Source of the DNA: Thermoplasmatota archaeon
GTDB lineage: Archaea; Thermoplasmatota; E2; JACPAO01; JAHFTW01
Direction of reading: 5' to 3'
Length of the DNA: 64,000 bases
NCBI GenBank assembly: GCA_038046785.1
Contig: JBBSVM010000001.1
Coordinates: 75,665-139,664, forward strand
Part shown: one piece after another, positions 10,381 to 51,396 of the stretch
Layout of the letters: each line of letters starts with the position of its first letter
Position numbering within the stretch: position 1 is the stretch's first letter
Translations under genes and position numbers: made by a program
The notes under the pieces: generated by a model
The model's database searches: none
What the model was told of the DNA's origin: nothing
Seen by the model: only the letters and a program-made list of their open reading frames with translations

Positions 10381-10394
10381 TCGTCTCCGACGAA

Positions 10395-10434
10395 CCACAG
10401 ATTTCACAGATGCCGTATCTGTGCAATCTGGGGT
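10395..10434. repeat. short copy of the palindromic CAGAT-unit junction repeat (CACAGAT variant)
   Basis: CCACAGATTTCACAGAT-GCCGT-ATCTGTGCAATCTGGGG lies in the 73-nt spacer between convergent stops (10380 and 10454). Confidence 0.8.
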
Positions 10435-10453
10435 TCCGTCGTCACGTTGGCGG

Positions 10454-11239
10454 TCAGATGGAGAAAAGCCGCCCGCCATCGACCGGCATGACGATGCCGC
10501 GCACGAACGACGCGGCAGGACTGCAGAGGAACGCGATGACCGCGCCGAGCTCGGTGGGCGTACCAAGGCGCCCCTCCGGTGTCGCGTCGATCCAGCTCTG
10601 CCGGATGGCTTTGGCGCCCTTGCCGGTGCGCAGGCCCATCTCCGTCTCCAAGTGCCCCAGCCGTTCGGTGTCGACGTAGCCGGGGAGGATGCTGTTGATG
10701 GTGATGCCGGGCGGCAACTCGCGGCTGAGGGTCTTGGCCCAACTCGCCATCGTGGCGCGGATGCTGTTGCTCACGCCGAGGCCGGCAATCGGCTCGCGAA
10801 CGCTGGAAGACAGAACGTTGACGATGCGGCCGTAGCCGGACTCTTTCATGCCGGGCAGCAGAGCCTGGACGAGCAGGTGGCTCGCCAGCAGATGGCGACC
10901 ATAGGGCTTGAGGAAGTCCGCCTCTTTCGCCTCCAGCAACGGCCCCGAGGGCGGCCCTCCGGTGTTGTTGATGAGGATTTGGATGGGGCCTGCCTTTTCC
11001 AGGTGCGCCTTCACTTGGCGCTCCAGGCCGGCGCGGTCGTCGAGGTCGGCCACCAGCATGTGCGTCTCCTGGGCGCCGGCATTCTTCAGGATGGGACGCA
11101 GCGCCGCAAGCTTGTCCGGGCTGCGGGCGAGCAGGGTAATGGTGGCGCCCAAACTGGCCAGTTCCATCGCGGCTGCCTTGCCGATGCCTTGGCTGGCGCC
11201 GCAGACCAGGGCGTGCCGTCCCGTGAGGTCAAGGTCCAC
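10454..11239 (-). CDS. SDR-family oxidoreductase (FabG-like)
   Basis: Carries the TGxxxGIG-type motif VCGASQGIGKA and the NNTG block. Last gene of the kynurenine-type operon. Confidence 0.85.
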   Translation of the reverse strand: MDLDLTGRHALVCGASQGIGKAAAMELASLGATITLLARSPDKLAALRPILKNAGAQETHMLVADLDDRAGLERQVKAHLEKAGPIQILINNTGGPPSGPLLEAKEADFLKPYGRHLLASHLLVQALLPGMKESGYGRIVNVLSSSVREPIAGLGVSNSIRATMASWAKTLSRELPPGITINSILPGYVDTERLGHLETEMGLRTGKGAKAIRQSWIDATPEGRLGTPTELGAVIAFLCSPAASFVRGIVMPVDGGRLFSI

Positions 11240-11269
11240 GCCGTGGCGACCGATGAGGGCGCTTTGATG

Positions 11270-11983
11270 CTACCGCTGATGTTCCCGGAGGACGGCGCGC
11301 ACCGGGCTCGCGTCGGCGTCCTCAAGCCGCAACGGCAAGGCGACGAGTTCGTAGTGGCCCGGCTTGACATGCGAAAGGACAAGCCCCTCCAGGTTCATCA
11401 TGCCGTGCCGGAAGAGCGCACGATGGGCAGGGAGCCCTTTGGAGTCGAACAGATCGGTGCTTGGCGTGTCGAAGCCGACGAGCACGACGCCGCGCTTGCC
11501 CAGGGCGTCGATGAGATCGGGCTCGGGCGCGGCGAAGTCGGAGTTCCAGTTCTCGGGGTCGGGGAAGGTCCCGGTCTTGAACAGGATGCGCGGCGCCGTC
11601 GGCTCCTGCACGAGGTCAACGAGGCCGAACCGTGTGCCGCGCTTGGCACGAACCTCGACCACTTGGCAGGGGCCGACGTAGGCGTCGAGCGGGAGGTCGC
11701 TGATGGCGCGCCCCTCATGGTGATAGTGCTGCGGGGCGTCGGTGTGGGCCCCGACATGGTAAGACGAATGGAAGTCGCCGAGGTCGATGCCGCCGCCTTC
11801 TGCCAAGCGTGCCGTCTTGCGCGCCGTGAAGGGAACGTCGCCGGGCCAGTTTGCGATGCGCGGGGAGACAAGCGGGCTGATGTCGAGGACGCGCGAAGCC
11901 TGCGAACTTGCTGCGGCGGAACCGGACGCGTCGGCCACCTGGTCGGCCAAGGTCTTGGCGTCGCGCCACGCTCCGGCCTTCAT
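11270..11983 (-). CDS. kynB: kynurenine formamidase / cyclase-family arylformamidase
   Basis: Cyclase-family metal motif HVGAHTDAPQH. The start overlaps the upstream stop (ATGA at 11980-11983). Confidence 0.75.
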   Translation of the reverse strand: MKAGAWRDAKTLADQVADASGSAAASSQASRVLDISPLVSPRIANWPGDVPFTARKTARLAEGGGIDLGDFHSSYHVGAHTDAPQHYHHEGRAISDLPLDAYVGPCQVVEVRAKRGTRFGLVDLVQEPTAPRILFKTGTFPDPENWNSDFAAPEPDLIDALGKRGVVLVGFDTPSTDLFDSKGLPAHRALFRHGMMNLEGLVLSHVKPGHYELVALPLRLEDADASPVRAVLREHQR

Positions 11984-13506
11984 CGGTTCTGTCCAATGTG
12001 CGCCACGACCTTGAACTCGACGGCAATCGGCGTCGGCAGCGCCTCGACCTGGACCGTCGTCCGCGTTGCTTGGATTTTGCCGAACGCCTTAGCGTACTCT
12101 TCGTTGAACGCCTTGAAATCGCGCTTCATGTCGGTGAGGAAGACCTGGACATCGAAGACGTCGGCAAGCGTCGCGCCCGATTCTTTGAGGACCGCCTCGA
12201 CGTTGGCGACGACCTGCCGCGTCTGCGCGACGATGTCGTACGCGAGCGGTTTGCCGGCGGCGTCGCGCGTCGGGCCGCCGGGGATGGCATCCGTACCGGG
12301 TGTGCGAGGTCCGATGCCGGCAAGGAAGAGCAGGTCGCCGACGCGGCGGGCGTGCGCGTAGGCGCCAACCGGCTTGGGCGCTGACTTTGCGTGGACGATG
12401 GCCTTGCTCGCCGGAGGAGTCGCCGAACTGGGCGCACCAGGATATCCTGCGCCACTGTCCTCATCCGCAGAGGAATGCGCGCCGCTCCAACGCTCGGTCT
12501 CGTCCGAGGTCTCGAACGCATTTGCCCCTCCGAGGACGTTGCGGTCGCCGTGGTGCTCGTCGGGGTCCGCCTCGTCGTACTCCTTGTCGGCCGCTGCTTT
12601 GCCGGTTGGAACCAGTTCGACGATGGCGGCGCCGGTACCGTAGATGGCCTCGTAGGCGTGCACGGTGCCGGCGAAATTGTTTGACTGGCCGGAAACGGCG
12701 GCGAGCCACCAGACCGCCTTCATCTTGGAGTCGCCGTTGGCCTGGCTGGCAAACTCGCGGGCGAGTTGGCTGGCATCCTCCAAACGGCCGCGGGAGAGGA
12801 ACTCGAGGTACTTGCGGTTCCACTCGTCGTCCTTGCGGCTGTGGATTTTGTCCTCCTTGAACGGAACGACGCCGCTGAAGAGCCGGTTGGAGAGCGCGGT
12901 GACGGCGACGGCGACGACGCGCAGACCGCGCTCGGCGATGGCTTCGCGCGCCGCCTTGCCAAGCACGATGGTCTCGGCGCGGTCGGCGTACATGTTGCAC
13001 GACACGATGCTGGCGGGAATCTTGTTGTCGGGGTTGAGAAGTTTCAGCGCGACGACGCTGCCGGTGTCCACGGGGAAACCGCGGTAGGAGACGGCGCGCA
13101 TCTCCAGGCCGCGCTTCTGGCCCGCCGCGACGTAGGCTTCGCCGAACGGCTTGTCCACGCGCAGCTTGTAAGGGATGACGCCGAGCTCGTGCCACTCCTC
13201 GTCCACGTGCGTCCACGCCGGTGCAGGGTCGGTCTGCACCTGGTGGCCGATGACGCTGGGCCAACGCGTCGAATAGAGAATGAGCAGGTCCGGCTTGAGT
13301 TCCTGGATGCGCTTTCGGACCTTCCCATAGGCGTCGCGGATGCGACGGTAGCCCGGGTTCGCGTCGGGCACCAGGAGCGGGTGCGGCAGGTGCGGGACAA
13401 TGAATGAGGCGACGACGCCCGACTGGGCCGCAGATTTCGCAGATTGCGCAGAGCTCCGACGGTTCTGCGAGGTCTGCGGAATCTGCGGTTTGGTCCGGCG
13501 CGTCAT
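11980..13506 (-). CDS. fusion of a LigB-type extradiol dioxygenase subunit (AmnA-like) and a RidA/YjgF deaminase domain, with a repeat-encoded N-terminal extension
   Basis: The N-terminal half resembles class III extradiol dioxygenase subunits (IVPHLPHPLL...). An acidic linker (DKEYDEADPDEHH...SADEDSG) follows. The C-terminal ~130 aa are RidA-like (VGAYAHARRVGDLLFLAGIGP...VEFKVVA). ATG 13506 overlaps the upstream stop (ATGA). Confidence 0.8.
   Translation of the reverse strand: MTRRTKPQIPQTSQNRRSSAQSAKSAAQSGVVASFIVPHLPHPLLVPDANPGYRRIRDAYGKVRKRIQELKPDLLILYSTRWPSVIGHQVQTDPAPAWTHVDEEWHELGVIPYKLRVDKPFGEAYVAAGQKRGLEMRAVSYRGFPVDTGSVVALKLLNPDNKIPASIVSCNMYADRAETIVLGKAAREAIAERGLRVVAVAVTALSNRLFSGVVPFKEDKIHSRKDDEWNRKYLEFLSRGRLEDASQLAREFASQANGDSKMKAVWWLAAVSGQSNNFAGTVHAYEAIYGTGAAIVELVPTGKAAADKEYDEADPDEHHGDRNVLGGANAFETSDETERWSGAHSSADEDSGAGYPGAPSSATPPASKAIVHAKSAPKPVGAYAHARRVGDLLFLAGIGPRTPGTDAIPGGPTRDAAGKPLAYDIVAQTRQVVANVEAVLKESGATLADVFDVQVFLTDMKRDFKAFNEEYAKAFGKIQATRTTVQVEALPTPIAVEFKVVAHIGQNR
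13427..13490. repeat. palindromic CGCAGAT-unit junction repeat, read in frame
   Basis: CCGCAGATTTCGCAGATTGCGCAGA-GCTCCGACGGT-TCTGCGAGGTCTGCGGAATCTGCGG lies within codons ~6-27 of the CDS ending at 13506. Confidence 0.85.
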
Positions 13507-14519
13507 GTCATCAACCTCGGCGTGACCTGGCGCGTCTTGGGATTGGGGTCCCACTCCAGCACGGCGTTGCCAGTGCCGATGACGGTGCCGTAGCCGTGGA
13601 GCTCTGCGGGATACGAAGGAAAGTCGAGCGCCGCGAGAAGCCACGACAAGCAGCCGGCGTCCGCTTCCGACGTCGCCTGGTCGATGAGGTCAGGCAGTTC
13701 GTCGAAGAGCTGCTTCCCTTTGCCGTCGCGGGCGAGGCCGATGGCGTGCATGTCCCACAAGTGCTGCCCGTGGTGGTAGATGTGCTCGTGGCTCATGTCC
13801 TCGGGCACCTTCGGCTCGCGGGTGAAGTGGCGGTGGCTGATGCTGTTGCTGGCGAGCAGCAAGGCGCGCTTGCCGGAAGCTTCGATGGCCTCCCGCGTCG
13901 CCTGGCCGAGGGCACGCATCTGCTCTTGGCCGACCTCGTTCGAGTAGTCGTTGTAGACGCGGCAGGAACTGATTCCGACGATGGGTTTGTCCCACTTCGG
14001 GTTCACGAGGTGGCACGCGGCGATGGTACCGTAGTCGATGCGGTACTCGGGGTTACGCATCATCTTCATCGTGAGCCCCTTCTTGGCGCCGCGGGCCGCG
14101 ATGTCCTCGGCCAACTCCACATCGACGTCGAAGTCGAAGTTGTAGCGGAACAGGTTGGGGAAGATGGGGTCCACGCTGAGCGATTTGAAGTGCGGAACGC
14201 CAAGAATGTGGTGGCCGACCCGGGTGCGCCAGTGCGGCGAGTGCACCAAAATGACATCGTAGTCGCGGGTGGCGCGGGCGAGACTGTGTCGGAGACGCTC
14301 GTAGCCCCAACGGATTGTCTCCCAGCCACCTTCACTGCGCGCCTCGTTCTGTTTCGGATTGTCGGCGTAGACGAGATGCGGCGGGTGCGGCGTGAGACAG
14401 CCGGCGACAATGGAGCCGCCTCCGGCCCGAACCGCAGATGACGCAGAGCGCGCAGACCGAACGTTCTTCTGCGCAATCTGCGCGATCTGCGGTTTGGTCG
14501 GGCGCTGTTTGCTGGCCAT
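13503..14519 (-). CDS. LigB-family extradiol ring-cleavage dioxygenase, catalytic (AmnB-like) subunit, with a repeat-encoded N-terminal extension
   Basis: Class III dioxygenase blocks are present (TPHPPHLVY, VLVHSPHW, SNSISHRH). There is no ATG/GTG/TTG between the repeat and the conserved domain. ATG 14519 lies 1 nt from the upstream stop. Confidence 0.85.
   Translation of the reverse strand: MASKQRPTKPQIAQIAQKNVRSARSASSAVRAGGGSIVAGCLTPHPPHLVYADNPKQNEARSEGGWETIRWGYERLRHSLARATRDYDVILVHSPHWRTRVGHHILGVPHFKSLSVDPIFPNLFRYNFDFDVDVELAEDIAARGAKKGLTMKMMRNPEYRIDYGTIAACHLVNPKWDKPIVGISSCRVYNDYSNEVGQEQMRALGQATREAIEASGKRALLLASNSISHRHFTREPKVPEDMSHEHIYHHGQHLWDMHAIGLARDGKGKQLFDELPDLIDQATSEADAGCLSWLLAALDFPSYPAELHGYGTVIGTGNAVLEWDPNPKTRQVTPRLMT
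14431..14493. repeat. palindromic CGCAGAT-unit junction repeat, read in frame
   Basis: CCGCAGATGACGCAGAGCGCGCAGA-CCGAACGTTCT-TCTGCGCAATCTGCGCGATCTGCGG. Confidence 0.85.
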
Positions 14520-14520
14520 C

Positions 14521-16065
14521 TCAGGTCTCCTTCATCGTGATGTTCTTCGCCTCGGAATAGAAATCGACCGACCACTCGCCGCCTTCGCGGCCGACGCCGG
14601 ACTCTTTGGAGCCGCCAAATGCGGTGGCAAGGTCGCGCACAAGCCAGCAGTTCACCCAGACCATGCCGGTCTCCAGTCGCTCCGCAACGCGGCGCGCTTT
14701 CGTCGCGTCTTTCGTCCAGACGGTGGCCGTCAGGCCATAGCGGACGCCGTTCGCCAACGCAATGGCTTCGGCTTCATCCCTGAAGGACTGCACGGTGACG
14801 ACGGGTCCAAAAATCTCCTCTTGGATGAGCCGACTCTCCTGCACGACGCCGGTGACGAGGGCGGGGGTCAGGAACGCGCCGTCGGCAAGCTCGCCTGCGA
14901 TGGTCGGCCGGTCGCCGCCGCAGAAAACCTTGGCCTCTTTGCGCGCCAAGTCAAGGTAGCCTTCGACCTTGGTGCGATGCGCAAGCGAGTTGAGGGGACC
15001 GATGTCGGTCGCCTCGTCGCGCGGGTCGCCCACCTTGAGCGCTTTCACCGCTGCCTCCAGCTTTGACAAGAATTTGGCCAACAAGCTCTGCTCGACGAGG
15101 ACGCGGCTCGTGCAGAGGCAAACCTGGCCGCCGTTCGTGAAACCGCCGCGAACCACGCCTGCGACCGCAGCATCGAGGTCACAGTCCGCGAAAACAACCG
15201 CAGGATTCTTGCCGCCGAGCTCCAGGCTGAGTTTCTTGGGCGGGCCAGAGGCGGCGGCCTGCGCAACTTTGGCGCCTGTGGCTGTGCCACCGGTGAAACT
15301 CACGGCACGGACGTCCGGGTTCCGGATGAGCGGGTCGCCCGCCTCGGGACCGAGCCCCTGCACGACGTTGTAAAGTCCGTCGGGGAGGCCCGCCTCGGCA
15401 AGCAGGTCGGCAAGAGCGTCGGCGGTGCGCGGCGTCAACTCGCTCGGCTTCGCGACGACCGCATTGCCGAGACCGAGCGCGGGGGCGACCTTCCAGGTCA
15501 GCAAGTAGAGTGGGAGGTTCCAGGGCGTGACGAGGCCGACGACGCCGACCGGAGTGCGCGATGTGGAGTGGACCCAGCCGTCGCTGTGGAACTCCGGCTC
15601 TGTGCGCTGCTCGAGGAAGTCGGCGTAGAAGCGGAAGTTGCGCGCGGCCCGTGGGATGTCGAGCGTGCGGGCGAGTCGAATGGGTTTGCCCGTGTCTTCC
15701 GACTCCATGCGCGCGAGCCGGTCAAGGTCGCGCTCGATGAGTTCTGCGGTGCGGCGCAGGATGCGGCAACGCTCGGCAAGTTCGAGGCTTGCCCACGAGG
15801 GCTGCGCCTTCGTCGCGGCGACCACCGCGGCATCGACGTCCTCGGCGTTGCCGCGCGGGACCTTGCACAGCACGACGTTGCGCGCCGGGTCCACGTTGTC
15901 GAGGTAGGCACCGGATGCGGGCGCCATCTTGCGGCCGCCAATGCGCTGCGACAGGCGCGGAACCGATTCGGCTTGAACATCGCGCTTGGCGTGGCCGTAG
16001 GCGCGGGCAAGGTCGCGTTGCGCCACTTCACGGTCGCGCTGGAGCCAGCCGAATCCTTCGCTCAC
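14521..16065 (-). CDS. NAD(P)-dependent aldehyde dehydrogenase (2-aminomuconate/2-hydroxymuconate semialdehyde dehydrogenase-like)
   Basis: ALDH blocks FTGGTATG, LELGGKNP and a catalytic Cys region (GQVCLCTSR). The GTG start overlaps the upstream stop (GTGA at 16062-16065). About 30 aa of extra N-terminus. Confidence 0.85.
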   Translation of the reverse strand: MSEGFGWLQRDREVAQRDLARAYGHAKRDVQAESVPRLSQRIGGRKMAPASGAYLDNVDPARNVVLCKVPRGNAEDVDAAVVAATKAQPSWASLELAERCRILRRTAELIERDLDRLARMESEDTGKPIRLARTLDIPRAARNFRFYADFLEQRTEPEFHSDGWVHSTSRTPVGVVGLVTPWNLPLYLLTWKVAPALGLGNAVVAKPSELTPRTADALADLLAEAGLPDGLYNVVQGLGPEAGDPLIRNPDVRAVSFTGGTATGAKVAQAAASGPPKKLSLELGGKNPAVVFADCDLDAAVAGVVRGGFTNGGQVCLCTSRVLVEQSLLAKFLSKLEAAVKALKVGDPRDEATDIGPLNSLAHRTKVEGYLDLARKEAKVFCGGDRPTIAGELADGAFLTPALVTGVVQESRLIQEEIFGPVVTVQSFRDEAEAIALANGVRYGLTATVWTKDATKARRVAERLETGMVWVNCWLVRDLATAFGGSKESGVGREGGEWSVDFYSEAKNITMKET

Positions 16066-17294
16066 GGCTCATGCCCCCGCATCAACGGCTGGCTGCCGAT
16101 GTAGTCGTCGTTGTCGTAGGTCCAGTGGTCGGTGTCAGGGTCCCACTCGTCCCATGTCGCAATCGAGCCGAGCGCCTTCAGGAACTTCGGCGGGACGACG
16201 CCCGGAACAATGAACGCCTTCTGCCGGTGCAGCGGGTAGGGGTTGCGCAGCGTGAAGCCGAGGACGCCGAGAATGGCACGCGCGACATACCAGGTCGCCC
16301 TCGGGTTCCAGCCATGCGCGATCTTGACGACGACGCCGAGGCCGTCGGGGTAGTCGGGATGCTCGATGGCGAGGCCGAGCAGGCCGTCGGCGCCTTCCTT
16401 GGCGATGACTTTGCCGCCGCACGATTTCAGGATGGTCGTGTCGAGCCGGTTGAAGCCGCCCACAAGGTCCGGGTTGCGCACCATCGCCTCCCATACCCAG
16501 TCCTTCTTGCGCGTCTTGGCGAGGTGGGCGTAGAGGATGGCGAGCTCGTTGACCGTGTTGCTGAGCGTTGGCAGGCCGCAGCCGTCGCGCGCCGTGCGGG
16601 CGGGGGTCCACTTCGGGCCGAGGATATCGGCGACGACCTTCGTGTAGGCCTGGAACCAGGGGTGCTGCGGCAGCAGGTAGCCGATGCGCGGCCAGCCTTT
16701 CGCCTTGCAGCCGGCAAGGATGGCGGCGTGCTCACCTGAGCAGGTGTGGTACCAGCGGCGCGGACGGCGCACGCTGCGGCCAAACGGGACGAGCGGCAGA
16801 TCGAGCGGCGCCTGCATGAGGCCCCACTCCGTCTCATGGAGAAGGCTCTGCGCGGCTGCGACGTGCTCGGTGTCGCCGTTGTGTGAGGCGAGCGCGATGG
16901 CTTTCTGCTCCCACGATGACGTTGCCAGCTCTTTTGCGAACACTTTCATCGCGAGCGGCTTCATCATGCTGCGGCCGTAGCAGAGAACGTTGCCGCCGAA
17001 CGAGTGAATGAGTTTGCCACCGTGCGCCCACGCGACGGCGCCGTGAATGGTCGTCTCCGAAATGCCGAGGCGACGGTAGTCCACGAGTGGCTCCCACTCG
17101 ACGTCGCGGCCCGTGGGGATTCCTTTCTCGCGTGTGCCAAGAGGGCCCTCTGGGTAGAGCTCGGAGCCGGGGCCCTGAATGCGGTCGCCTTGGCCGTCAC
17201 TGCGAGCGCCCGTTTTGGTCGCAGATTTCACAGATTTGCGCAGAACGCGTTTCTGTGGCTTCTGCGCAATCTGCGACTTCGTCCGGCGCGTCAC
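16062..17294 (-). CDS. asparaginase-II (PF06089-like) family protein with a repeat-encoded N-terminal extension
   Basis: The family core contains the RDGCGLP block. Track ORF 16062..18071 was trimmed to GTG 17294, which overlaps the LLM gene stop (GTGA). About 55 aa precede the conserved domain. Confidence 0.7.
   Translation of the reverse strand: MTRRTKSQIAQKPQKRVLRKSVKSATKTGARSDGQGDRIQGPGSELYPEGPLGTREKGIPTGRDVEWEPLVDYRRLGISETTIHGAVAWAHGGKLIHSFGGNVLCYGRSMMKPLAMKVFAKELATSSWEQKAIALASHNGDTEHVAAAQSLLHETEWGLMQAPLDLPLVPFGRSVRRPRRWYHTCSGEHAAILAGCKAKGWPRIGYLLPQHPWFQAYTKVVADILGPKWTPARTARDGCGLPTLSNTVNELAILYAHLAKTRKKDWVWEAMVRNPDLVGGFNRLDTTILKSCGGKVIAKEGADGLLGLAIEHPDYPDGLGVVVKIAHGWNPRATWYVARAILGVLGFTLRNPYPLHRQKAFIVPGVVPPKFLKALGSIATWDEWDPDTDHWTYDNDDYIGSQPLMRGHEP
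17217..17277. repeat. palindromic CGCAGAT-unit junction repeat, read in frame
   Basis: TCGCAGATTTCACAGATTTGCGCAGA-ACGCGTT-TCTGTGGCTTCTGCGCAATCTGCGA. Confidence 0.85.
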
Positions 17295-18553
17295 GCGGCG
17301 ACCTCCTTGCGAGCGAGTTTGGGCGTGACTTTCTCCATGAAAGCCGCCATGTTGCGAATGACGCGGTCGGAATCGTGGTTGAAGAAATCGAACCAGAGCA
17401 TGAGACGGTCGTCGGAGTGGTAGCGCGCGGCAAGCTGTTGCGCAACGTCGTCGGCGGTGCCGATGACAGCGTTGTCGGACGCCTCGCCGACTTTCTTCGG
17501 GTCGAGGGTGCCCTCCAGGGCGTTCCAATATGCGGCGAGCGCTGCCTTCGCCTCCGCCTGCGCGGCGGCGCGCCGTTGCTCGGGCGAGAGGACCGGCTCC
17601 TCGTTGAGGAAGACCAGGACGGTGCGCGGCATGTAGCTGCGTTTCCACGGGCCGCCCTCCTTGTGGAACACCTTGCGCATCCGTTCGTGCGTCGCGTCGA
17701 TGACGGTGCCCGGCGTGATGCTCAAATTGGCGACGTGGGCGGGCAGGAACTTGTTGGCGAGTTCGTGCGCCTGAGGATCGTGCGAGCCGACGACGAGCTG
17801 CACCAGTTCGCGGCGCCACGCCTGCGGGATAATTTTGAGGGGGTCGAAATGGAACTGCTTCGGGACGCGGATGCGTTCGTTTTCTCCCCCCGCCATCGAC
17901 GAGAGCCTGCCTTCCGCTTTCGCCGCGTCGCGTGCCTTCAGCCACTCCGGCTCGCTGCGGAAGTCTGCGCGGCCGATGGTGCGTTCCGGGACCTGGCCGC
18001 CAGCCAGCGTCTCTCCCGAGAGCAGCCTGGAGAAAACCTCGCAGGCCTCGAGAAAGACGGTGCCTTTCCACAACCCGAAGGGCAGCGCTTTCTCGAGCGG
18101 AGTGCGCGGCTCGATGCCGTAGGCGCGATTCATGTAATCGAAACGGCCGGCACTGAAGCCGACGTGGATGCGGCGCCGTTCGGCGGGGTCGAGGCCGTGC
18201 AGGGCCGCGAACATCGCGATGCGCTCCGCCGCGGCGACCGGGCCGCCGTTGCAGAGGATGTTCATGACGGCAGAGCCCACCTCGATGCGCTTGGTGCGGC
18301 GGAAGATCGCATGGGCGAACTGCAGCATGTCTGCGTTGAGGCCGACCTCCCCCTGCCAGTGCGGGATGACGGGAAGCCGGTTGCCCTTCTGCACTTCACT
18401 GCTAAGATGGCTTTCCGCGAGCCAGGCGACGCCGAAGCCGAGCCGATCCGCCGCCTCGATTTGCGCCATCGCGTTGGCGAACATCTCGCGCTCCGTCGGC
18501 GTGCGCCCCGCGACGGGGGTCTGGCTGATGGAGAGGAAAAGGTCGAACTCCAC
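17291..18553 (-). CDS. LLM-class (luciferase-like) flavin-dependent oxidoreductase
   Basis: 420 aa. The N-terminus EFDLFLS...AEAADRLGFGVAWLAESH is typical of luciferase-like monooxygenases. GTG start. Confidence 0.7.
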   Translation of the reverse strand: MEFDLFLSISQTPVAGRTPTEREMFANAMAQIEAADRLGFGVAWLAESHLSSEVQKGNRLPVIPHWQGEVGLNADMLQFAHAIFRRTKRIEVGSAVMNILCNGGPVAAAERIAMFAALHGLDPAERRRIHVGFSAGRFDYMNRAYGIEPRTPLEKALPFGLWKGTVFLEACEVFSRLLSGETLAGGQVPERTIGRADFRSEPEWLKARDAAKAEGRLSSMAGGENERIRVPKQFHFDPLKIIPQAWRRELVQLVVGSHDPQAHELANKFLPAHVANLSITPGTVIDATHERMRKVFHKEGGPWKRSYMPRTVLVFLNEEPVLSPEQRRAAAQAEAKAALAAYWNALEGTLDPKKVGEASDNAVIGTADDVAQQLAARYHSDDRLMLWFDFFNHDSDRVIRNMAAFMEKVTPKLARKEVAA

Positions 18554-18596
18554 GTCAAACCGTCCAGGGGTTGGTGCGCTTGAAGCCTGCGGACGG

Positions 18597-19415
18597 CTAC
18601 GCCGGGCTCGTCCCGGCTTGGTGCGTCACTTGGTTGCGCACGGTCCAGAGGGCGGGCCAGAGGGCGCCCTGGACATCCACCTCAAGCTGATGGACGGCAT
18701 AGCCCTTCAGGCTCTTGACGTCGCGGCCGATGATGCGCTTGACCAGGGCGAGGTGGGTCTGGCGCCAGAGCGTGAACGCCATGTCGACATCAGTCATCAT
18801 CTCAAGCAGCCGCAGGACATCGGGCTGCGAGCGAGGCTGGACGTAGATGGAGAGGATGTCGCTCTTGCGTCGCTTGAGGAGATCCTGGACTTTGGGCCAG
18901 AGGGCGGGCGCCTGCTGCTGAATCTGCCGGAACCCGGGCGACTCGGCGCCGGAGCCCTGTCCGAGAGCGGCGCGAATGACGTGGAAGTCCCACGGCGTCA
19001 TCGTCTCCAGGACCCGCAGCGCTTCCGTGTTGATGCGGAGCGTCGCGGAGGCACGCGCGAGAAGGGGATAGGCCTCAACCAGGCGGTCCTGCTCGATGAG
19101 GGTGCCAACACTCTTCAGCTCGAAGAGAACCAGCTTACACCACAGCTCGAACGACTGGTGCACAACTTGGAACATCAGTTCATCGTGGTGGACCCGCTCG
19201 CCCTCGGATTTCTGCAGCGCAAGCAGTTCCGGCACGCGCATGTAGGTCTCGTAGTCGGTGGTCTTGCCACTGGAGAGTCGTTGTGGGTTGTTGTGGCCAA
19301 TGGGGCCGACGCCGGAGACCGCTGAGGCGGCGGCGGCGACCCAGTCGCCCGCCTTCCCGGCCGCCCGTTTCGCCTTCTCCTTGATGCCCGTTCCTTTCGT
19401 GGAGGGGGGTTCCAT
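18597..19415 (-). CDS. kynA: tryptophan 2,3-dioxygenase
   Basis: TDYETYMRVPELLALQ...HDELMFQVVHQSFELW matches the TDO signature region. ATG 19415 preferred over GTG 19430. Confidence 0.8.
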   Translation of the reverse strand: MEPPSTKGTGIKEKAKRAAGKAGDWVAAAASAVSGVGPIGHNNPQRLSSGKTTDYETYMRVPELLALQKSEGERVHHDELMFQVVHQSFELWCKLVLFELKSVGTLIEQDRLVEAYPLLARASATLRINTEALRVLETMTPWDFHVIRAALGQGSGAESPGFRQIQQQAPALWPKVQDLLKRRKSDILSIYVQPRSQPDVLRLLEMMTDVDMAFTLWRQTHLALVKRIIGRDVKSLKGYAVHQLEVDVQGALWPALWTVRNQVTHQAGTSPA

Positions 19416-19501
19416 TGTACAAAACCGCACATCAATCCAGGTTGAACCCGCTCTTGAATCTTGCCGTTTCTCTCATATCCAAGGCGCGCCCATCTCTTGG
19501 T

Positions 19502-23591: not shown

Positions 23592-23663
23592 GCCGACGTA
23601 GCACAGCGGTAGTGCAGCTGTCTTGTAAACAGCAGGTCGTGTGTTCAAATCACACCGTCGGCT
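23592..23663 (+). tRNA. tRNA-Thr (UGU)
   Basis: Hand-folded cloverleaf: acceptor GCCGACG/CGTCGGC, anticodon loop CTTGTAA, T arm GTGTG-TTCAAAT-CACAC. No encoded CCA. Confidence 0.9.
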
Positions 23664-25670: not shown

Positions 25671-25745
25671 GGCCCGGTTAGTGTAGCCTGGTTAACATAT
25701 GGGATTGTGGCTCCCTTGTGCGGGGTTCAAATCCCCGATCGGGCC
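25671..25745 (+). tRNA. tRNA-His (GUG) with genome-encoded G-1
   Basis: Acceptor GCCCGGT/ATCGGGC is preceded by an extra G that pairs with C73. Anticodon loop TTGTGGC; T loop TTCAAAT. Confidence 0.9.
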
Positions 25746-29120: not shown

Positions 29121-30389
29121 GTGCCCACCGACGTCCTTGTGGAGAACTTCCATGTCAAGGGCTCGCCAAAGCGCAACTGGCCCAAGAAAATCGTCTGGTG
29201 GGACGAGACCCTGCGCGACGGCGAGCAGACCCCGGGCGTCTACTACACGCACGACGAGAAGCTGGAGCTTGCCCGCCTCATCTCCGAGACCGGCGTCGAT
29301 GTGATGAACGTCGGCATCCCCGCCATCTCCCCCAACGAGCTGAAGGCTGTGAAGGCGATTGCCAACGCCGGCCTCGACGCCAGCATCCTCGGTGCCGCGC
29401 GCACCGTGCGCAGCGACATCGACGCCGTCATCGCCTCCGACGCTCCCGAGATTGCCGCGTTCATCGCCGCCTCCGACGTCCACCTCAAGCACAAGCTCAA
29501 CATCACACGCGAGAAGTGCATCGAGATCGCGGTTGACTCCGTGCAGTACGCGAAGGACCACGGCCTCAAGGTCACCTTCGTCACCGAGGACACCGTGCGC
29601 GCCGACATGGGTTTCGTGACAACGCTCTACCAGGCCGCCATCGACGCAGGCGCGAAACGCGTCCTTTTCTGTGACACCGTTGGCGTCATGACACCAAGCA
29701 CCATCGGCTGGTGGCTCGACGAAATGGTGGGTCGCGTCAACCGCAAGGTCGAGTACGGCGTGCACCTGCACAACGACTTCGGCTTCGCTGCCGCCAACAC
29801 CCTCACCGCCCTCGAGCACGGCATCCCCTGCGTCAACACCACCGTGAACGGCATCGGCGAGCGCGCCGGCAATGCCAGCTTCGAGGAGGTCGTCATGGCC
29901 CTCGAGGACCTCTACGAGCGCCCCAGCGGCATCGACAAGGCAAAGCTGTTCGCCCTGAGCCGCCGCGTCGAGGAGTGCACCGGCGTCCCGGTCGCCTTCA
30001 ACAAGGCGGTCGTCGGTTACAACGCCTTCACGCACGAGTCCGGCATCCACACGGATGGCGTCATCAAGAAGGCGGCCACCTACGAACCGATGAAGGTCGA
30101 GGAGCTCGGACGCCGGCGCCGCTTCGTTTTCGGCAAGCACACCGGGACCCGCGCCGTCGAGACCCGCATCACGGAGGCGGGCCTTGCTGCAACGAAGGAG
30201 CAGCTGCTCGCCATCGCCAACGACATCAAGGTCCACACCGAGGAGCACACGAAGGAGTACGTGCGCGACTTCATCGCCGCGTACCGCACCTGGGACCGCG
30301 ACAACAAGGGTGTTTCACCGGAAGTGTTCTGGGCCATCGCGAAGAAGCACGGCATCAAGGTGCCGAGCAAGATTCCGTTGACTGTTTAG
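29121..30389 (+). CDS. HMGL-like DRE-TIM synthase (2-isopropylmalate / homocitrate / citramalate synthase family)
   Basis: LRDGEQ, HLHNDFGFAAAN and HESGIH blocks. Substrate cannot be assigned from sequence alone. Confidence 0.8.
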   Translation: MPTDVLVENFHVKGSPKRNWPKKIVWWDETLRDGEQTPGVYYTHDEKLELARLISETGVDVMNVGIPAISPNELKAVKAIANAGLDASILGAARTVRSDIDAVIASDAPEIAAFIAASDVHLKHKLNITREKCIEIAVDSVQYAKDHGLKVTFVTEDTVRADMGFVTTLYQAAIDAGAKRVLFCDTVGVMTPSTIGWWLDEMVGRVNRKVEYGVHLHNDFGFAAANTLTALEHGIPCVNTTVNGIGERAGNASFEEVVMALEDLYERPSGIDKAKLFALSRRVEECTGVPVAFNKAVVGYNAFTHESGIHTDGVIKKAATYEPMKVEELGRRRRFVFGKHTGTRAVETRITEAGLAATKEQLLAIANDIKVHTEEHTKEYVRDFIAAYRTWDRDNKGVSPEVFWAIAKKHGIKVPSKIPLTV

Positions 30390-30390
30390 G

Positions 30391-30470
30391 TCGCAGATTG
30401 CGCCGATTTCTCAGATTTTTCCTTCGCGCAGAACGGCGAGTCTGCGTCATCTGAGCAATCTGCGCCAAGC
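30391..30470. repeat. palindromic CGCAGAT-unit junction repeat, non-coding copy
   Basis: GTCGCAGATTGCGCCGATTTCTCAGATT...GCGCAGAACGGCGAG-TCTGCGTCATCTGAGCAATCTGCGCC fills the 85-nt spacer between convergent stops (30389 and 30475). Confidence 0.85.
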
Positions 30471-34017: not shown

Positions 34018-34066
34018 GGATTGGCCAGACGAAGGGGCTTGAAAAGCTCACGATGGGCCGCCTGGA

Positions 34067-34103
34067 ACACAGATTTCACAGATGCCTCTGTGAGCCGCTC
34101 TGG
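34067..34103. repeat. short/decayed copy of the CAGAT-unit repeat
   Basis: ACACAGATTTCACAGATGCC-TCTGTGAGCCGCTCTGG. The left arm is nearly identical to the copy at 10395. Confidence 0.65.
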
Positions 34104-34142
34104 CTGGAATTCGTTCGTGGGTATTCGCTTCCCGCCAAAATG

Positions 34143-34259
34143 TCACAGATTGCGGCTCGGCCAAACTCCAGTCTCATCTGCGCAATTTTGGCGCAACCTC
34201 CGCTTGTCCTTTGAATGAGATTCCCTAACGTTGCGCGAACGAATCTGCGGAATCTGTGG
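34143..34259. repeat. cluster of CAGAT/ATCTG units (one or two decayed repeat copies)
   Basis: Units TCACAGATTGCGG, CATCTGCGCAATTTTGGCGCAA and GAATCTGCGGAATCTGTGG lie in the lon/accC spacer. Confidence 0.6.
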
Positions 34260-34278
34260 TCCAGGGCGGCGCGAACGT

Positions 34279-39985: not shown

Positions 39986-40013
39986 GACGCCCACGACTAC
40001 GCCTCCCCGACGA

Positions 40014-40075
40014 GTCGCAGATTACTCAGATTGCGCAGAACGGAGGTAATCTGAGAAATCTGCGCAATCTGCGAC
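40014..40075. repeat. palindromic CGCAGAT-unit junction repeat at the E2/E3 junction
   Basis: GTCGCAGATTACTCAGATTGCGCAGA-ACGGAGGT-AATCTGAGAAATCTGCGCAATCTGCGAC. It lies inside a 29-codon ORF (40086..39997) that starts immediately after the E2 stop. Confidence 0.85.
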
Positions 40076-40086
40076 CGGTAGGGCAT

Positions 40087-41481
40087 TTACAACGCCTCCA
40101 ACAAGAGGAGTTGCGGGTTCTCCAGGTACTGCTTCAGCGTGTTGGCGAACAGGGCGCCGTTGTAGCCGTCCACGATGCGGTGGTCGAACGAGAACGAGAG
40201 GTTCATGCGCCAGCCGATGACGATGGCTCCATTCTTGACGACGGGCACCTGTTTCATCTCGTGGACGCCCATGATGGCGACCTCGGGGTAGTTCAGGATG
40301 GGCGTCGCGAGCAGGCCGCCCATCTTTCCGAGGCTGGTGATGGTGAAGGTCGAGCCCGAGAGCTCCTCGAGCTTGGCCTTGCCCGCCTTCGTGCGCTCGG
40401 AGAGGTCAGCAATCTCCTTGGCAACGTCAAGCATCGACTTCTTGTCGGCGTCCTTGACGACCGGCACAATGAGGCCGGCATCGGTCGCCGTCGCGATGCC
40501 GAGGTGGATGTAGCGTTTCTTGACAATCTCCGAGGTGGTCTCGTCGAAGGCGACGTTGACGTCGGGGTGCTTCTTCAGTGCCGCGACGGCGGCTTTCGCG
40601 ATGAAGGGCAGGAACGTCAGCTTGACGCCCTTCTCCTCCGCGAGTCCCTTGGCAGAGTCCCGCAGGGCGACGAGTTGGTCGCAGTCCACTTCGGCGACGT
40701 AGGTGAAGTGGGTCGCAGTGAACTTGCTGCGCTCCATCGCTTTGCTGATGGTGCGGCGCAGGCCACGCAGCGGGACGCGCTCCTCGCGGTTCGCGTCGCT
40801 GCTGTACTTGACGTCCGTGTAGCTGAAACGCGCTCCGCCAACACCTGACGGGGCGGCGGATTCTGCGGCGGGCGCGGAGCCCACGGCGCCGCTGCCGAAC
40901 TTCACCAAATCGTCTGCGGTGACGCGGCCGTTCTGTCCGGTGCCGAGAATCTGGTTGATGTCGAGGCCCAGTTCGCGCGCCTTCTTGCGAATGGCGGGCG
41001 CGGCGGTCGCTTTGTAGCCGGCGGGAACGCTGGAGCGGGCTGCGGCGGGCGTGGAAGCGGTGGCGCCTTTGCGCTCGATGATCTTGGTCGCAGCAGCAAT
41101 CTCCTTGGGCAGCTCGAAGAGTGTCTTCTCTTCCTTGGCTTCGGCTTTCGCCTCAGCCTTCGCGGGCTTGGCCTCGCTCTTGGGCGTGGGCGCCGTCGGG
41201 GCGGGCGCCGCGGCCGGAGCCGCAGGGGCAGAACTGGCCTCGCCCGCTTCAAGGATCTCCACGATGACCTGGCCCACTTTCGCCATCTGGCCTTCGGCGA
41301 CGTGCTGCTTGGCGATGGTGCCCTTGCGCGGGCTGGTGAGCTCGACGGTCGCCTTGTCGGTCATGACCTCGACGAACGGCTCGTCCTCCTTGACGGCGTC
41401 GCCCTCTTTCTTGATCCAGCGGACGATTTCGCCCTCCTGGATGCCTTCGCCGATGTCGGGCAGTTTGAACTTGAAGGTCAT
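40087..41481 (-). CDS. dihydrolipoamide acyltransferase (E2) of a 2-oxoacid dehydrogenase complex
   Basis: Lipoyl domain (EVMTDKATVEL), Ala/Pro linker, a peripheral subunit-binding domain, and a catalytic domain with DHRIVDG. Trimmed to ATG 41481. Confidence 0.9.
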   Translation of the reverse strand: MTFKFKLPDIGEGIQEGEIVRWIKKEGDAVKEDEPFVEVMTDKATVELTSPRKGTIAKQHVAEGQMAKVGQVIVEILEAGEASSAPAAPAAAPAPTAPTPKSEAKPAKAEAKAEAKEEKTLFELPKEIAAATKIIERKGATASTPAAARSSVPAGYKATAAPAIRKKARELGLDINQILGTGQNGRVTADDLVKFGSGAVGSAPAAESAAPSGVGGARFSYTDVKYSSDANREERVPLRGLRRTISKAMERSKFTATHFTYVAEVDCDQLVALRDSAKGLAEEKGVKLTFLPFIAKAAVAALKKHPDVNVAFDETTSEIVKKRYIHLGIATATDAGLIVPVVKDADKKSMLDVAKEIADLSERTKAGKAKLEELSGSTFTITSLGKMGGLLATPILNYPEVAIMGVHEMKQVPVVKNGAIVIGWRMNLSFSFDHRIVDGYNGALFANTLKQYLENPQLLLLEAL

Positions 41482-49990: not shown

Positions 49991-50301
49991 GGCTGACCCC
50001 CTCGCCCCAGAGCGGCTAACGGTGCCCGCAAGGGAACTGAGGAAGGTCGCCACATCTCTGACAAGGAACAGTGCCGCACAAGCGGTGGACTGGAGACGGT
50101 CCGTCGGGGCGCAGAAACGACACAGCCAGCCGCATGGAATGAGAGGGATGTGCCCTCGACGTCGCGGCTGGATTTGCTGAAACGTGCCATCGACCCTGGG
50201 ATGCAAGCCCGCAAGGGCGCGCAGTCGGATGCCGCTTGCCGGCCACCCGCGAGGGTGCCCGGGAAACAGAATGGCGCCTACTCGGGGCTGGGGGGTCACC
50301 T
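49991..50301 (+). ncRNA. rnpB: RNase P RNA (type A-like)
   Basis: The ~310-nt region has no credible ORF. CR-I-like GAGGAAGGUCGCC (50039-50051) can pair with ACAGAAUGGCGCCUAC (50266-50281) to form P4 with a bulged U. The termini pair as P1/P2 (UGACCCCC..GCCCC with GGGGC..GGGGGUCA). There is also a P3-like hairpin with a GCAA loop and a GCAGAAAC-type J11/12 stretch. Confidence 0.75.
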
Positions 50302-51048: not shown

Positions 51049-51181
51049 AGTGGCATCCCGCCAGGAGTGGAACGGTGATGCCACGGCTATAACCTTGCCG
51101 AAACGCAACAGGAGGGCTCCAGGAGGGCGAAAACGGCATCTCCCCATCTGTTGCCTCCTGGTTCCCTCCTGGACCGGTTCC

Positions 51182-51322: not shown

Positions 51323-51396
51323 TCGGGACTACCGGATTTGAACCGGTGTACTCCAGATTTACAGTCTGGCGCCTAACCGAGCTAGACTAAGTCCCG
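51323..51396 (-). tRNA. tRNA-Tyr (GUA)
   Basis: The reverse complement folds with acceptor CGGGACT/AGTCCCG, anticodon loop CTGTAAA and T arm ACCGG-TTCAAAT-CCGGT. No CCA. Confidence 0.9.

Follow-up and report, generated by a model that had tools for sequence, protein, structure and literature searches.

Palindromic Repeats of Nine-Nucleotide Units Probably Underlie the Similar N-Termini of Three Enzymes in an Archaeal Operon

Introduction

In one operon of a Thermoplasmatota archaeon, three enzymes of the same pathway begin with similar basic peptides of 30 residues, and each peptide is encoded by a copy of a palindromic DNA repeat. The operon lies on the minus strand of a 64,000-nucleotide stretch of contig JBBSVM010000001.1 (GenBank assembly GCA_038046785.1, positions 75,665 to 139,664), which we call the window. 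The enzymes are an AmnB-like LigB dioxygenase, an AmnA-like LigB subunit fused to RidA, and an Asparaginase_II-like protein (ASPG2). What makes their N-termini alike? A preliminary description of this DNA had offered three hypotheses: a shared tag, mobile repeats that were exonised and are tolerated as disordered tails, and mRNA hairpins that couple the translation of each gene to termination in the gene upstream.

Our analysis favors the second of these. The three N-termini look alike because one DNA repeat is read in the same frame in all of them, and the peptide is a by-product of that repeat. We put at roughly 0.6 the probability that the copies are exonised selfish palindromic repeats, acting like Rickettsia palindromic elements (RPEs), repetitive extragenic palindromes (REPs) or miniature transposable elements with inverted repeats (MITEs), and that they form a new family in an archaeal host.

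Results

The element is an imperfect palindrome of 60-95 nt, with lengths of 80-95 nt in the three in-frame copies, all of which are on the minus strand (Table 1). Each arm is built from two to three tandem 9-nt units of the form C-R-C-N-G-A-T-T-N (here CGCAGATTN), a short loop separates the arms, and the units sit on an outer stem (GACGCGCCGGAC.../...GTCGGGCGTC). Searching the window with the pattern CGCAGATTGCGCAGA and up to three mismatches gave 29 matches, compared to 4.3 +/- 2.1 expected, and none of 100 shuffles reached this number. The predicted folds of the three in-frame copies range from -49 to -62 kcal/mol (z = -3.9 to -5.9), and in two of the three the start codon falls at the base of the predicted stem. 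A sliding-window RNAfold scan was too noisy to use because the DNA is GC-rich, and most windows pass -42 kcal/mol. The preliminary description had given coordinates for these features, the three peptides, ATGA and GTGA stop/start overlaps, a 1-nt spacer at the remaining junction and the near-identical flanks of two copies (xTGACGCGCCGGACSAARYCGCAGATT), all of which proved exact.

The position of the start codons indicates how the repeat is read. Codon 1 is the sole ATG, GTG or TTG among codons 1-40 of the AmnA-like gene and among codons 1-45 of the AmnB-like gene, which bears out the earlier claim that neither dioxygenase has such a codon between the repeat and the catalytic domain. The Pfam LigB domain begins at residues 36 and 42 in the two dioxygenases. 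Residue 3 of a solved bacterial AmnB homologue, 3vsg_B, aligns to residue 35 of the AmnB-like protein, which therefore carries about 32 extra residues. Because no other in-frame start is available, the repeat would have to be translated in both dioxygenase genes. The argument is strict only for these two subunits, because the ASPG2 gene has further in-frame GTG codons at codon 22 (inside the right arm) and codon 71; its Asparaginase_II domain begins at residue 73, and the conserved protein region starts from QGPGSE at about residue 40.

Shine-Dalgarno-like motifs precede all three starts (Table 1), and AGGAGG recurs at the junction between the aldehyde dehydrogenase (ALDH) and AmnB genes in three related assemblies (L001, L005 and L006). 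Gene calls in public assemblies, made independently, place the starts at the same overlaps. Additionally, the ancestral methionine has been lost in tailed orthologues: MKGRIVAGCL in a sister clade has become GKG[RS]IVAGCL in orthologues that are otherwise 75-94% identical. The missing alternative dioxygenase starts, the Shine-Dalgarno-like motifs and the lost methionine all agree with the preliminary description, which held that the repeat is read in frame and makes the three N-termini look homologous.

The enzyme genes are not the only places where the element is found. The 64 kb hold at least seven copies, and at least four of these are non-coding copies that the preliminary description had not mentioned. 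In each of the four, the repeat starts 0-14 nt past the preceding stop codon; two copies are flanked by convergent genes and two by genes of the same direction. The composite copy at 34061-34265 contains a second, different hairpin in its loop (34133-34193), a nesting of the kind seen with mobile repeats. At the junction between the E2 acyltransferase and E3 dehydrogenase genes (39999-40089), the hairpin is spanned by a 29-codon open reading frame (ORF) that is not fused to E3 (MPYRSQIAQISQITSVLRNLSNLRLVGEA; TAAATG...TAG). The TAAATG at which this ORF starts follows the E2 stop immediately, and the ORF closes 4 nt short of the E3 GTG, with the forward arm in the same frame as in the three enzymes and the reverse arm in another.

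Comparison with relatives shows how the element has been placed, gained and lost. The operon is syntenic in L001-L007, L159, L160 and L162. Hairpins occupy the same three junctions (AmnB>AmnA, ALDH>AmnB and that between the luciferase-like monooxygenase and ASPG2 genes, LUX>ASPG2) in L002, L004, L005, L006, L007, L159, L160 and L162, except that L159 is without the LUX>ASPG2 hairpin, and L003 has one at the single junction on its contig. The closest relative, L001 (94% AmnB identity), has none of the three hairpins and keeps the overlaps. It retains short basic tails, MTRKPRARTTTKGERG and MTAKPAARRKAPPAVTTDGQGDRI, whose DNA looks like outer stem remaining after deletion of the core. In the sister clade (L008-L014, L018; P0012, P0017, P0019-25), AmnB begins directly at M(S)KGRIVAGCL, the start of the domain. 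The outgroup L012 provides an empty site at the AmnB>AmnA junction, a plain ATGA GCACGGGCGTC encoding MSTGVIAGF. There the ATGA is followed by MSTGVIAGFVVPG, while in the window it is followed by the element and then by GVVASFIVPH; the window copy thus resembles an in-frame insertion made cleanly behind the ATGA. A second archaeal match, L048, had an ambiguous context and was not used.

Copies in relatives are not confined to gene starts. The linker between AmnA and RidA contains in-frame copies in L002 (two copies), L004, L005, L006 and L007, and further ones occur within LUX of L007 and close to the ASPG2 C-terminus in L002. In L160 (LUX>ASPG2) and L162 (AmnB>AmnA), the genes as called in the public assemblies begin at a right-arm GTG, and these two hairpins may be only partly translated. 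The subfamily with the unit CACCGAT is found at AmnB>AmnA in L159 but at LUX>ASPG2 in L002 and L160, suggesting turnover or conversion between copies. At ALDH>AmnB in L005 and L006, on the other hand, the elements have a common loop and differ in the outer unit by a compensatory change (CCACGG/CCGTGG versus CCGCGG/CCGCGG), and some copies therefore descend in place. We also observed a different 10-bp stem, GATGACATGA...TCATGTCATC, which pairs the AmnB>AmnA stop/start overlap with a downstream segment in L001 (6930-6975) and L002 (6985-7030).

The preliminary description had proposed aligning orthologues to see whether the extension is conserved as a peptide or as a palindrome. The palindrome is kept, at about 84% Watson-Crick pairing and with compensatory changes between the arms, and the peptide is not. 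The 9-nt unit varies among copies and genomes (CGCAGAT, CACAGAT, CACGGAT, CGCGGAT, CGCGGAA, CACCGAT, CACTGAA, CGGGGAT), yet the arms of each element still match. Across 25 junction hairpins from 10 genomes, mean arm complementarity is 0.85, whereas left-arm identity is only 0.54 to orthologous copies and 0.58 to other copies of the same genome. When 23 elements were aligned with three units in register, 83.2% of cells were paired, compared to 73.1% in shuffles, and 78 cells had changed on both sides, compared to 36.5; neither value was reached in 500 shuffles, and slid controls pair at 25-44%. Position 4 of the unit takes G-C, A-U, C-G and U-A pairs. This alignment mixes orthologues and paralogues, and DNA-level processes could yield the same covariation; palindromes can also be kept by template switching of DNA. 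Position 9 is unpaired in 19-20 of the 23 elements because the NAA codon of the right arm cannot be TAA in coding copies. Coding copies form 8-bp helices split by single mismatches; non-coding bacterial copies usually pair position 9 (TTA/TAA).

The encoded tails behave very differently. Across 19 orthologues, identity is 13% in the tail versus 83% in the domain. Glutamine and arginine exchange as the unit changes (QIAQ to PRIAR), and even the frame varies: in L002, the subfamily CACCGATGT is read as STDVTEPTDV at the N-terminus of ASPG2 and as PPMSPMTPM in the AmnA-RidA linker. Tail composition favors A, K, S, R and P, with few D and E. An AlphaFold2 model of the AmnB-like protein, built from a 34-sequence alignment, has pLDDT (the predicted local confidence score) of 43-47 for residues 1-30 and a confident domain thereafter.

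Related arrays are widespread in bacteria. The exact array CGCAGATTNCGCAGATTNCGCAGA occurs in at least 120 stretches of species-representative genomes, compared to about 0.1 expected by chance for 22 fixed bases by our own estimate. The matches come from Verrucomicrobia, Planctomycetes, Acidobacteria, Gemmatimonadetes, Chloroflexi, Cyanobacteria, Bacteroidetes, Nitrospirota, NC10 and several Proteobacteria, and among those listed is one further Thermoplasmatota metagenome-assembled genome (MAG). Typically, ..ATCCGCAGATTNCGCAGATTNCGCAGAT is followed by a loop of 5-200 nt and then by ATCTGCGNAATCTGCGNAATCTGCGGAT... At four of these loci, a gene of about 130 codons takes the place of the loop; it matches PF13366 PDDEXK_3 and TIGR04256 GxxExxY (Table 1). 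This lead came from ORFs adjoining arrays; pairs of arrays 0.15-4 kb apart, sought for a long autonomous element, were mostly separate hairpins. We then fetched GxxExxY/PDDEXK_3 genes by protein pattern alone, which confirmed 595 of 600 stretches, and kept 80. Flanking inverted repeats are present at 47 of 60 analysable loci, compared to 1 of 60 shuffled controls, and in 46 of the 47 the flanking arms are the nonamer arrays (C[AG]C[AG]GATTN). The array-bracketed gene may be the gene-carrying form of the hairpin element. The GxxExxY ORF often ends inside the downstream array (...SKSAKSA). PDDEXK_3 has been listed with function unknown and with transfers between Bacteria and Archaea (PMC3424549).

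We found no description of the nonamer-array family in Rfam or in the literature searched. An Rfam scan at gathering thresholds, covering the window and 15 bacterial repeat loci, returned no family for the hairpin, and a literature search by repeat sequence returned only primers. A BLAST search of plasmids with the consensus hairpin matched only two unannotated Gemmatirosa megaplasmids.

The remaining features of the window are collected in Table 1; among them, the archaeal-type RNase P RNA and the three tRNA genes were the first pointers to an archaeal source. The nearest AmnB homologues and loci are from Thermoplasmata/Thermoplasmatota MAGs, in keeping with a GC-rich window from a Thermoplasmatota archaeon, and the nearest non-archaeal AmnB relatives are bacterial, with 60-72% identity. 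The cluster at 10454-19430 (minus strand) is of the kynurenine/2-aminophenol type, with tryptophan 2,3-dioxygenase (TDO), a cyclase-type formamidase, the AmnB/AmnA-like dioxygenase, ALDH, and an AmnA-like subunit that carries the RidA fusion. N-terminal extensions of 30-50 residues, which the repeat does not encode, are also present on TDO, ALDH and the cyclase. A hairpin at 51100-51180, about 140 nt from the tRNA gene at 51323-51396, has a different unit (CCAGGAGGG / CCCTCCTGG, resembling Shine-Dalgarno and anti-Shine-Dalgarno sequences) and a predicted fold of -39.7 kcal/mol (z = -3.2).

Table 1. Repeat copies, junctions, genes and RNAs of the window, and bacterial loci at which arrays bracket a gene.
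Feature	Position	Strand	Details
Repeat copy 1	13411..13504	minus	Core arms 13428-13488; residues 1-32 of LigB (AmnA-like)/RidA fusion (MTRRTKPQIPQTSQNRRSSAQSAKSAAQSG...); predicted fold -55.9 kcal/mol, z = -5.9
Repeat copy 2	14422..14504	minus	Residues 6-33 of AmnB-like LigB dioxygenase (..RPTKPQIAQIAQKNVRSARSASSAVRAG..); predicted fold -62 kcal/mol, z = -5.5
Repeat copy 3	17204..17292	minus	Residues 1-30 of Asparaginase_II-like protein (VTRRTKSQIAQKPQKRVLRKSVKSATKTG); predicted fold -48.9 kcal/mol, z = -3.9
AmnB-like/AmnA-like ATGA stop/start overlap	13503..13506	minus	GAGGT Shine-Dalgarno-like motif at 13514-13518, 7 nt before ATG
ALDH>AmnB junction	14517..14532	minus	AAGGAGA Shine-Dalgarno-like motif at 14526-14532, 8 nt before ATG; ALDH TGA 14521-14523; 1-nt spacer; ATG 14517-14519
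Luciferase-like/Asparaginase_II-like junction	17291..17308	minus	AAGGAGGT Shine-Dalgarno-like motif at 17301-17308, 6 nt before GTG; GTGA overlap 17291-17294
Non-coding copy, unit CACAGATT	10383..10443		Between convergent stops of Rieske gene (+, ends 10380) and short-chain dehydrogenase/reductase (SDR) gene (-, ends 10454); predicted fold -32.1 kcal/mol, z = -5.3
Non-coding copy	30389..30466		Directly after TAG of HMGL-like gene (+, ends 30389); ends 9 nt before carboxyl-transferase stop (-, ends 30475); convergent
Non-coding composite copy	34061..34265	minus	Outer arms 34240-34265 and 34061-84 around ~150 nt; begins 14 nt after LonB stop, upstream of biotin carboxylase gene
Non-coding copy	40007..40078	minus	Between E2 acyltransferase (stop 40087) and E3 dehydrogenase (start near 39994), 2-oxoacid dehydrogenase cluster; predicted fold -42.7 kcal/mol, z = -5.3
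Host operon segment	11980..18553	minus	Pfam; synteny in relatives
TDO	18597-19430	minus	Pfam; upstream end of cluster
Luciferase-like monooxygenase (LUX)	17291-18553	minus	Pfam
Asparaginase_II-like protein (ASPG2)	16062-17294	minus	Pfam
ALDH	14521-16065	minus	Pfam
AmnB-like LigB dioxygenase	13503-14519	minus	Pfam
AmnA-like LigB+RidA fusion	11980-13506	minus	Pfam
Cyclase	11270-11983	minus	Pfam; downstream of LigB+RidA fusion
SDR	10454-11239	minus	Pfam; downstream of cyclase
Archaeal-type RNase P RNA	50000-50292		117.8 bits
tRNA genes (three)	23592-23663; 25672-25745; 51323-51396
Gene-bracketing array loci (outside the window)	L110 2651-3117; L128 678-1231; L117 4493-4992; L064 3278-3752; also among L163-L242

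Discussion

Among the three hypotheses of the preliminary description, exonised mobile repeats tolerated as disordered tails fit best: there are non-coding and linker copies, the repeat is read in two frames, identity is 13% in the tails compared to 83% in the domain, and the modeled tail has pLDDT of 43-47. Surviving copies are found where they would be harmless, immediately 3' to stop codons and within disordered stretches of protein. Here the start of the following gene overlaps or abuts the upstream stop (ATGA, GTGA, TGAnATG), and for that reason a copy just after a stop also lies just after the start of the next gene. Only copies whose length is a multiple of three and which are free of stops in that frame could persist. 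Ribosomes would start at the codon preceded by the Shine-Dalgarno-like motif, or re-initiate after terminating on the overlapping stop, and would then read through the hairpin to give a basic, probably disordered tail of 28-35 residues before an intact catalytic domain. The repeat would be tolerated because of this placement between the overlapping start codon and the intact domain. Candidate routes by which the palindrome could be kept are template-switch quasipalindrome correction, conversion between copies, and re-insertion. The data show the anatomy, the distribution of copies, the lack of other starts, the comparative pattern and the bacterial association of the arrays with GxxExxY/PDDEXK_3 genes; translation of the tails, spread of the element and upkeep of the palindrome are steps that we infer.

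Several observations weigh against this account. The same three junctions are occupied, with palindromy maintained, in 9 of the 10 related assemblies that have them, although ALDH in those assemblies is only 58-70% identical; neutral selfish DNA seldom persists in this way, and the hairpin could have been under selection. A net basic charge (+3 to +11) is common to the tails of all 19 orthologues, which might reflect selection on the peptide. We found no target-site duplications, and the one filled/empty pair compared (the window versus L012 at AmnB>AmnA) has no clear direct duplication. No transposase or PDDEXK_3 gene was found in the window or in the archaeal loci compared, and the link to PDDEXK_3 comes from 80 bacterial loci, the closest relatives of a query that was itself assembled from array-selected loci. 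Finally, translation of the repeats is deduced rather than observed.

The bacterial loci raise a broader proposal, which we hold only tentatively. The hairpins may be the gene-less miniature of an undescribed selfish element of Bacteria and Archaea whose full form is the array-bracketed GxxExxY/PDDEXK_3 gene, encoding a protein of the PD-(D/E)XK fold. Such an element would repeatedly write low-complexity tails and linkers into proteins, and some of its copies would have been long retained at cistron junctions in this Thermoplasmatota clade.

A different explanation gives the hairpins a function, as RNA or DNA elements retained at cistron junctions, with translation a forced by-product of the compact overlaps. 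Possible roles include making initiation dependent on upstream termination, protecting the upstream mRNA from 3'-exonucleases, and marking a processing site. Several observations fit this reading. The arms covary at the same three junctions in nine related assemblies, and the compensatory change between L005 and L006, in an outer unit around a shared loop, is of the kind expected of a regulatory mRNA hairpin. Two of the three in-frame copies have the start codon at the foot of the predicted stem, and every non-coding copy is found just past a stop codon, as hairpins at 3' ends would be. Where the called starts fall inside the right arm, as in L160 and L162, the hairpin and not its translation is what is shared.

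However, L001 keeps the operon and its overlaps without any of the three hairpins, copies are also seen in linkers and between genes that converge, sites that have no start codon, and the distance from start codon to stem ranges from +7 to +53 nt. Mismatches between the arms on the mRNA strand comprise 14 G.U and 33 A.C (binomial p = 0.008), so G.U is not enriched and the bias is the opposite of that expected from selection at the RNA level, although the test is confounded because the right arm of coding copies must avoid TAA. Quasipalindrome correction of DNA can also give the same covariation. Termination-reinitiation coupling at overlapping stop/start codons is reported for Haloferax and Escherichia coli. 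The ATGA and GTGA overlaps resemble that arrangement, as does the placing of a Shine-Dalgarno-like motif within the last part of the upstream gene, but no downstream hairpin is needed for such coupling. The coupling hairpin of the preliminary description therefore fares poorly on the hairpin-free overlaps of L001, the copies without a start codon and the wobble counts, yet the hairpins persist with covariation. We consider a functional junction hairpin unlikely but a live, if unproven, rival; coupling in particular gained no positive support, and nothing shows that the hairpin is needed.

We doubt far more strongly that the basic tails, rich in Gln, Ser, Ala and Lys, are a shared tag that co-localises, scaffolds or targets the pathway enzymes. 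Such a tag would account for similar tails on three enzymes of one pathway, and for tails that stay net basic in all 19 orthologues even where the palindrome has decayed or been deleted (L001, P0007-P0009). A targeting tag is probably not the explanation, though, given how little of the peptide is conserved. Glutamine and arginine replace each other when the repeat unit changes, the frame differs within one subfamily and gives an acidic peptide in ASPG2 of L002, and other window copies of this element lie outside coding sequence. Tails are absent from the sister clade and from the solved bacterial homologues. A word-index search detected no related peptide family, phmmer against 1.84 billion representatives returned one spurious repeat protein, and a literature search with the translated peptides found nothing relevant. 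The conserved motif expected of a twin-arginine translocation (Tat) signal or of a microcompartment or encapsulin tag was not found, at 13% tail identity and with pLDDT below 50, and no shell or scaffold gene was present among the window genes scanned. We considered a Tat signal specifically because two tails contain TRR, and rejected it; no hydrophobic stretch follows the RR, and the AmnB-like tail has no RR.

Slightly less probable still is that the repeats are ordinary, untranslated intercistronic spacers with true starts downstream at non-canonical or mis-called codons: ASPG2 offers GTG at codons 22 and 71, gene callers picked a right-arm GTG in L160 and L162, and predicted N-terminal REPs are often extragenic, as the literature warns (PMC3733652), but in the dioxygenases codon 1 is followed by no ATG, GTG or TTG before the conserved domain starts (residues 33-35), Shine-Dalgarno-like motifs precede the upstream starts with no conserved motif after the hairpin, and the ancestral methionine codon is now glycine. 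An ATT start for AmnB after a post-hairpin GGAGG was also considered and rejected, since this motif is not conserved in relatives.

If the copies are exonised selfish repeats, three kinds of known element invite comparison. RPEs (Ogata et al. 2000, 2002, via PMC10969869, PMC3733652) are likewise multi-copy palindromes that lie in frame in unrelated genes, add a peptide while leaving the fold intact, and have non-coding copies too; they are reported to make in-frame fusions (PMC10969869). In-frame palindromic insertions are found here in the three window copies and in the linker and intragenic copies of relatives. The host, however, is an archaeon (Thermoplasmatota) rather than Rickettsia, and the arms are tandem 9-nt units, whereas RPEs are described there as a 100-150-bp consensus encoding a conserved peptide. 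In our element the peptide lacks conservation, two frames are used within one subfamily, and insertions are mainly at stop/start overlaps, where they give N-terminal tails, and in linkers. On that description, it stands apart from RPEs.

REPs, with their BIME and REPIN assemblies (GTAG-, CGTC-tagged; Di Nocera et al. 2013, PMC3733652), also occupy the gaps between genes, whether these converge or run in the same direction, at no more than about 20 nt from the upstream stop, and vary among species; some fall inside genes, N-termini included, and dimers in inverted order form long hairpins. This location near the 3' end of an upstream ORF is shared by all four non-coding copies in the window, REPs being found within 20 bp of upstream ORF ends (PMC3733652). 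The REP unit, in contrast, is itself a stem-loop of 20-40 bp, with a stem of 6-13 bp, a loop of 4-5 nt and a GTAG or CGTC tag (PMC3733652), while the unit here is a non-palindromic nonamer and a hairpin arises only from two opposed arrays. Because of this unit structure we rejected membership in the CGTC-tagged REPs, which had been suggested by GGTTCGTCGG in the outer stem of some copies. The associated bacterial gene is GxxExxY/PDDEXK_3 and not a Y1 transposase, and no gene for the REP-associated tyrosine transposase (RAYT) turned up among the part of the window genes scanned with Pfam.

The element shares with MITEs its terminal inverted repeats, which enclose a short and variable interior without genes (5-200 nt), its many copies and its nesting, as well as, in bacteria, what may be a longer gene-carrying form with the same ends. 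It differs in that no target-site duplication was found and the gene of the long form encodes a small PD-(D/E)XK-fold protein and not a known transposase; its mobility is presumed.

These repeats set a trap for annotation: unrelated enzymes seem to share an N-terminal domain or signal, and a DNA repeat can be mistaken for a targeting tag. They extend protein-coding palindromic repeats, best known from Rickettsia, to Archaea. The operon also supplies natural pairs of junctions with and without a hairpin of about -50 kcal/mol after an overlapping start, material on which archaeal re-initiation and unwinding can be studied. If the link to GxxExxY/PDDEXK_3 genes is true, it would provide the first functional lead for a very common protein family and a candidate for a new kind of small mobile element.

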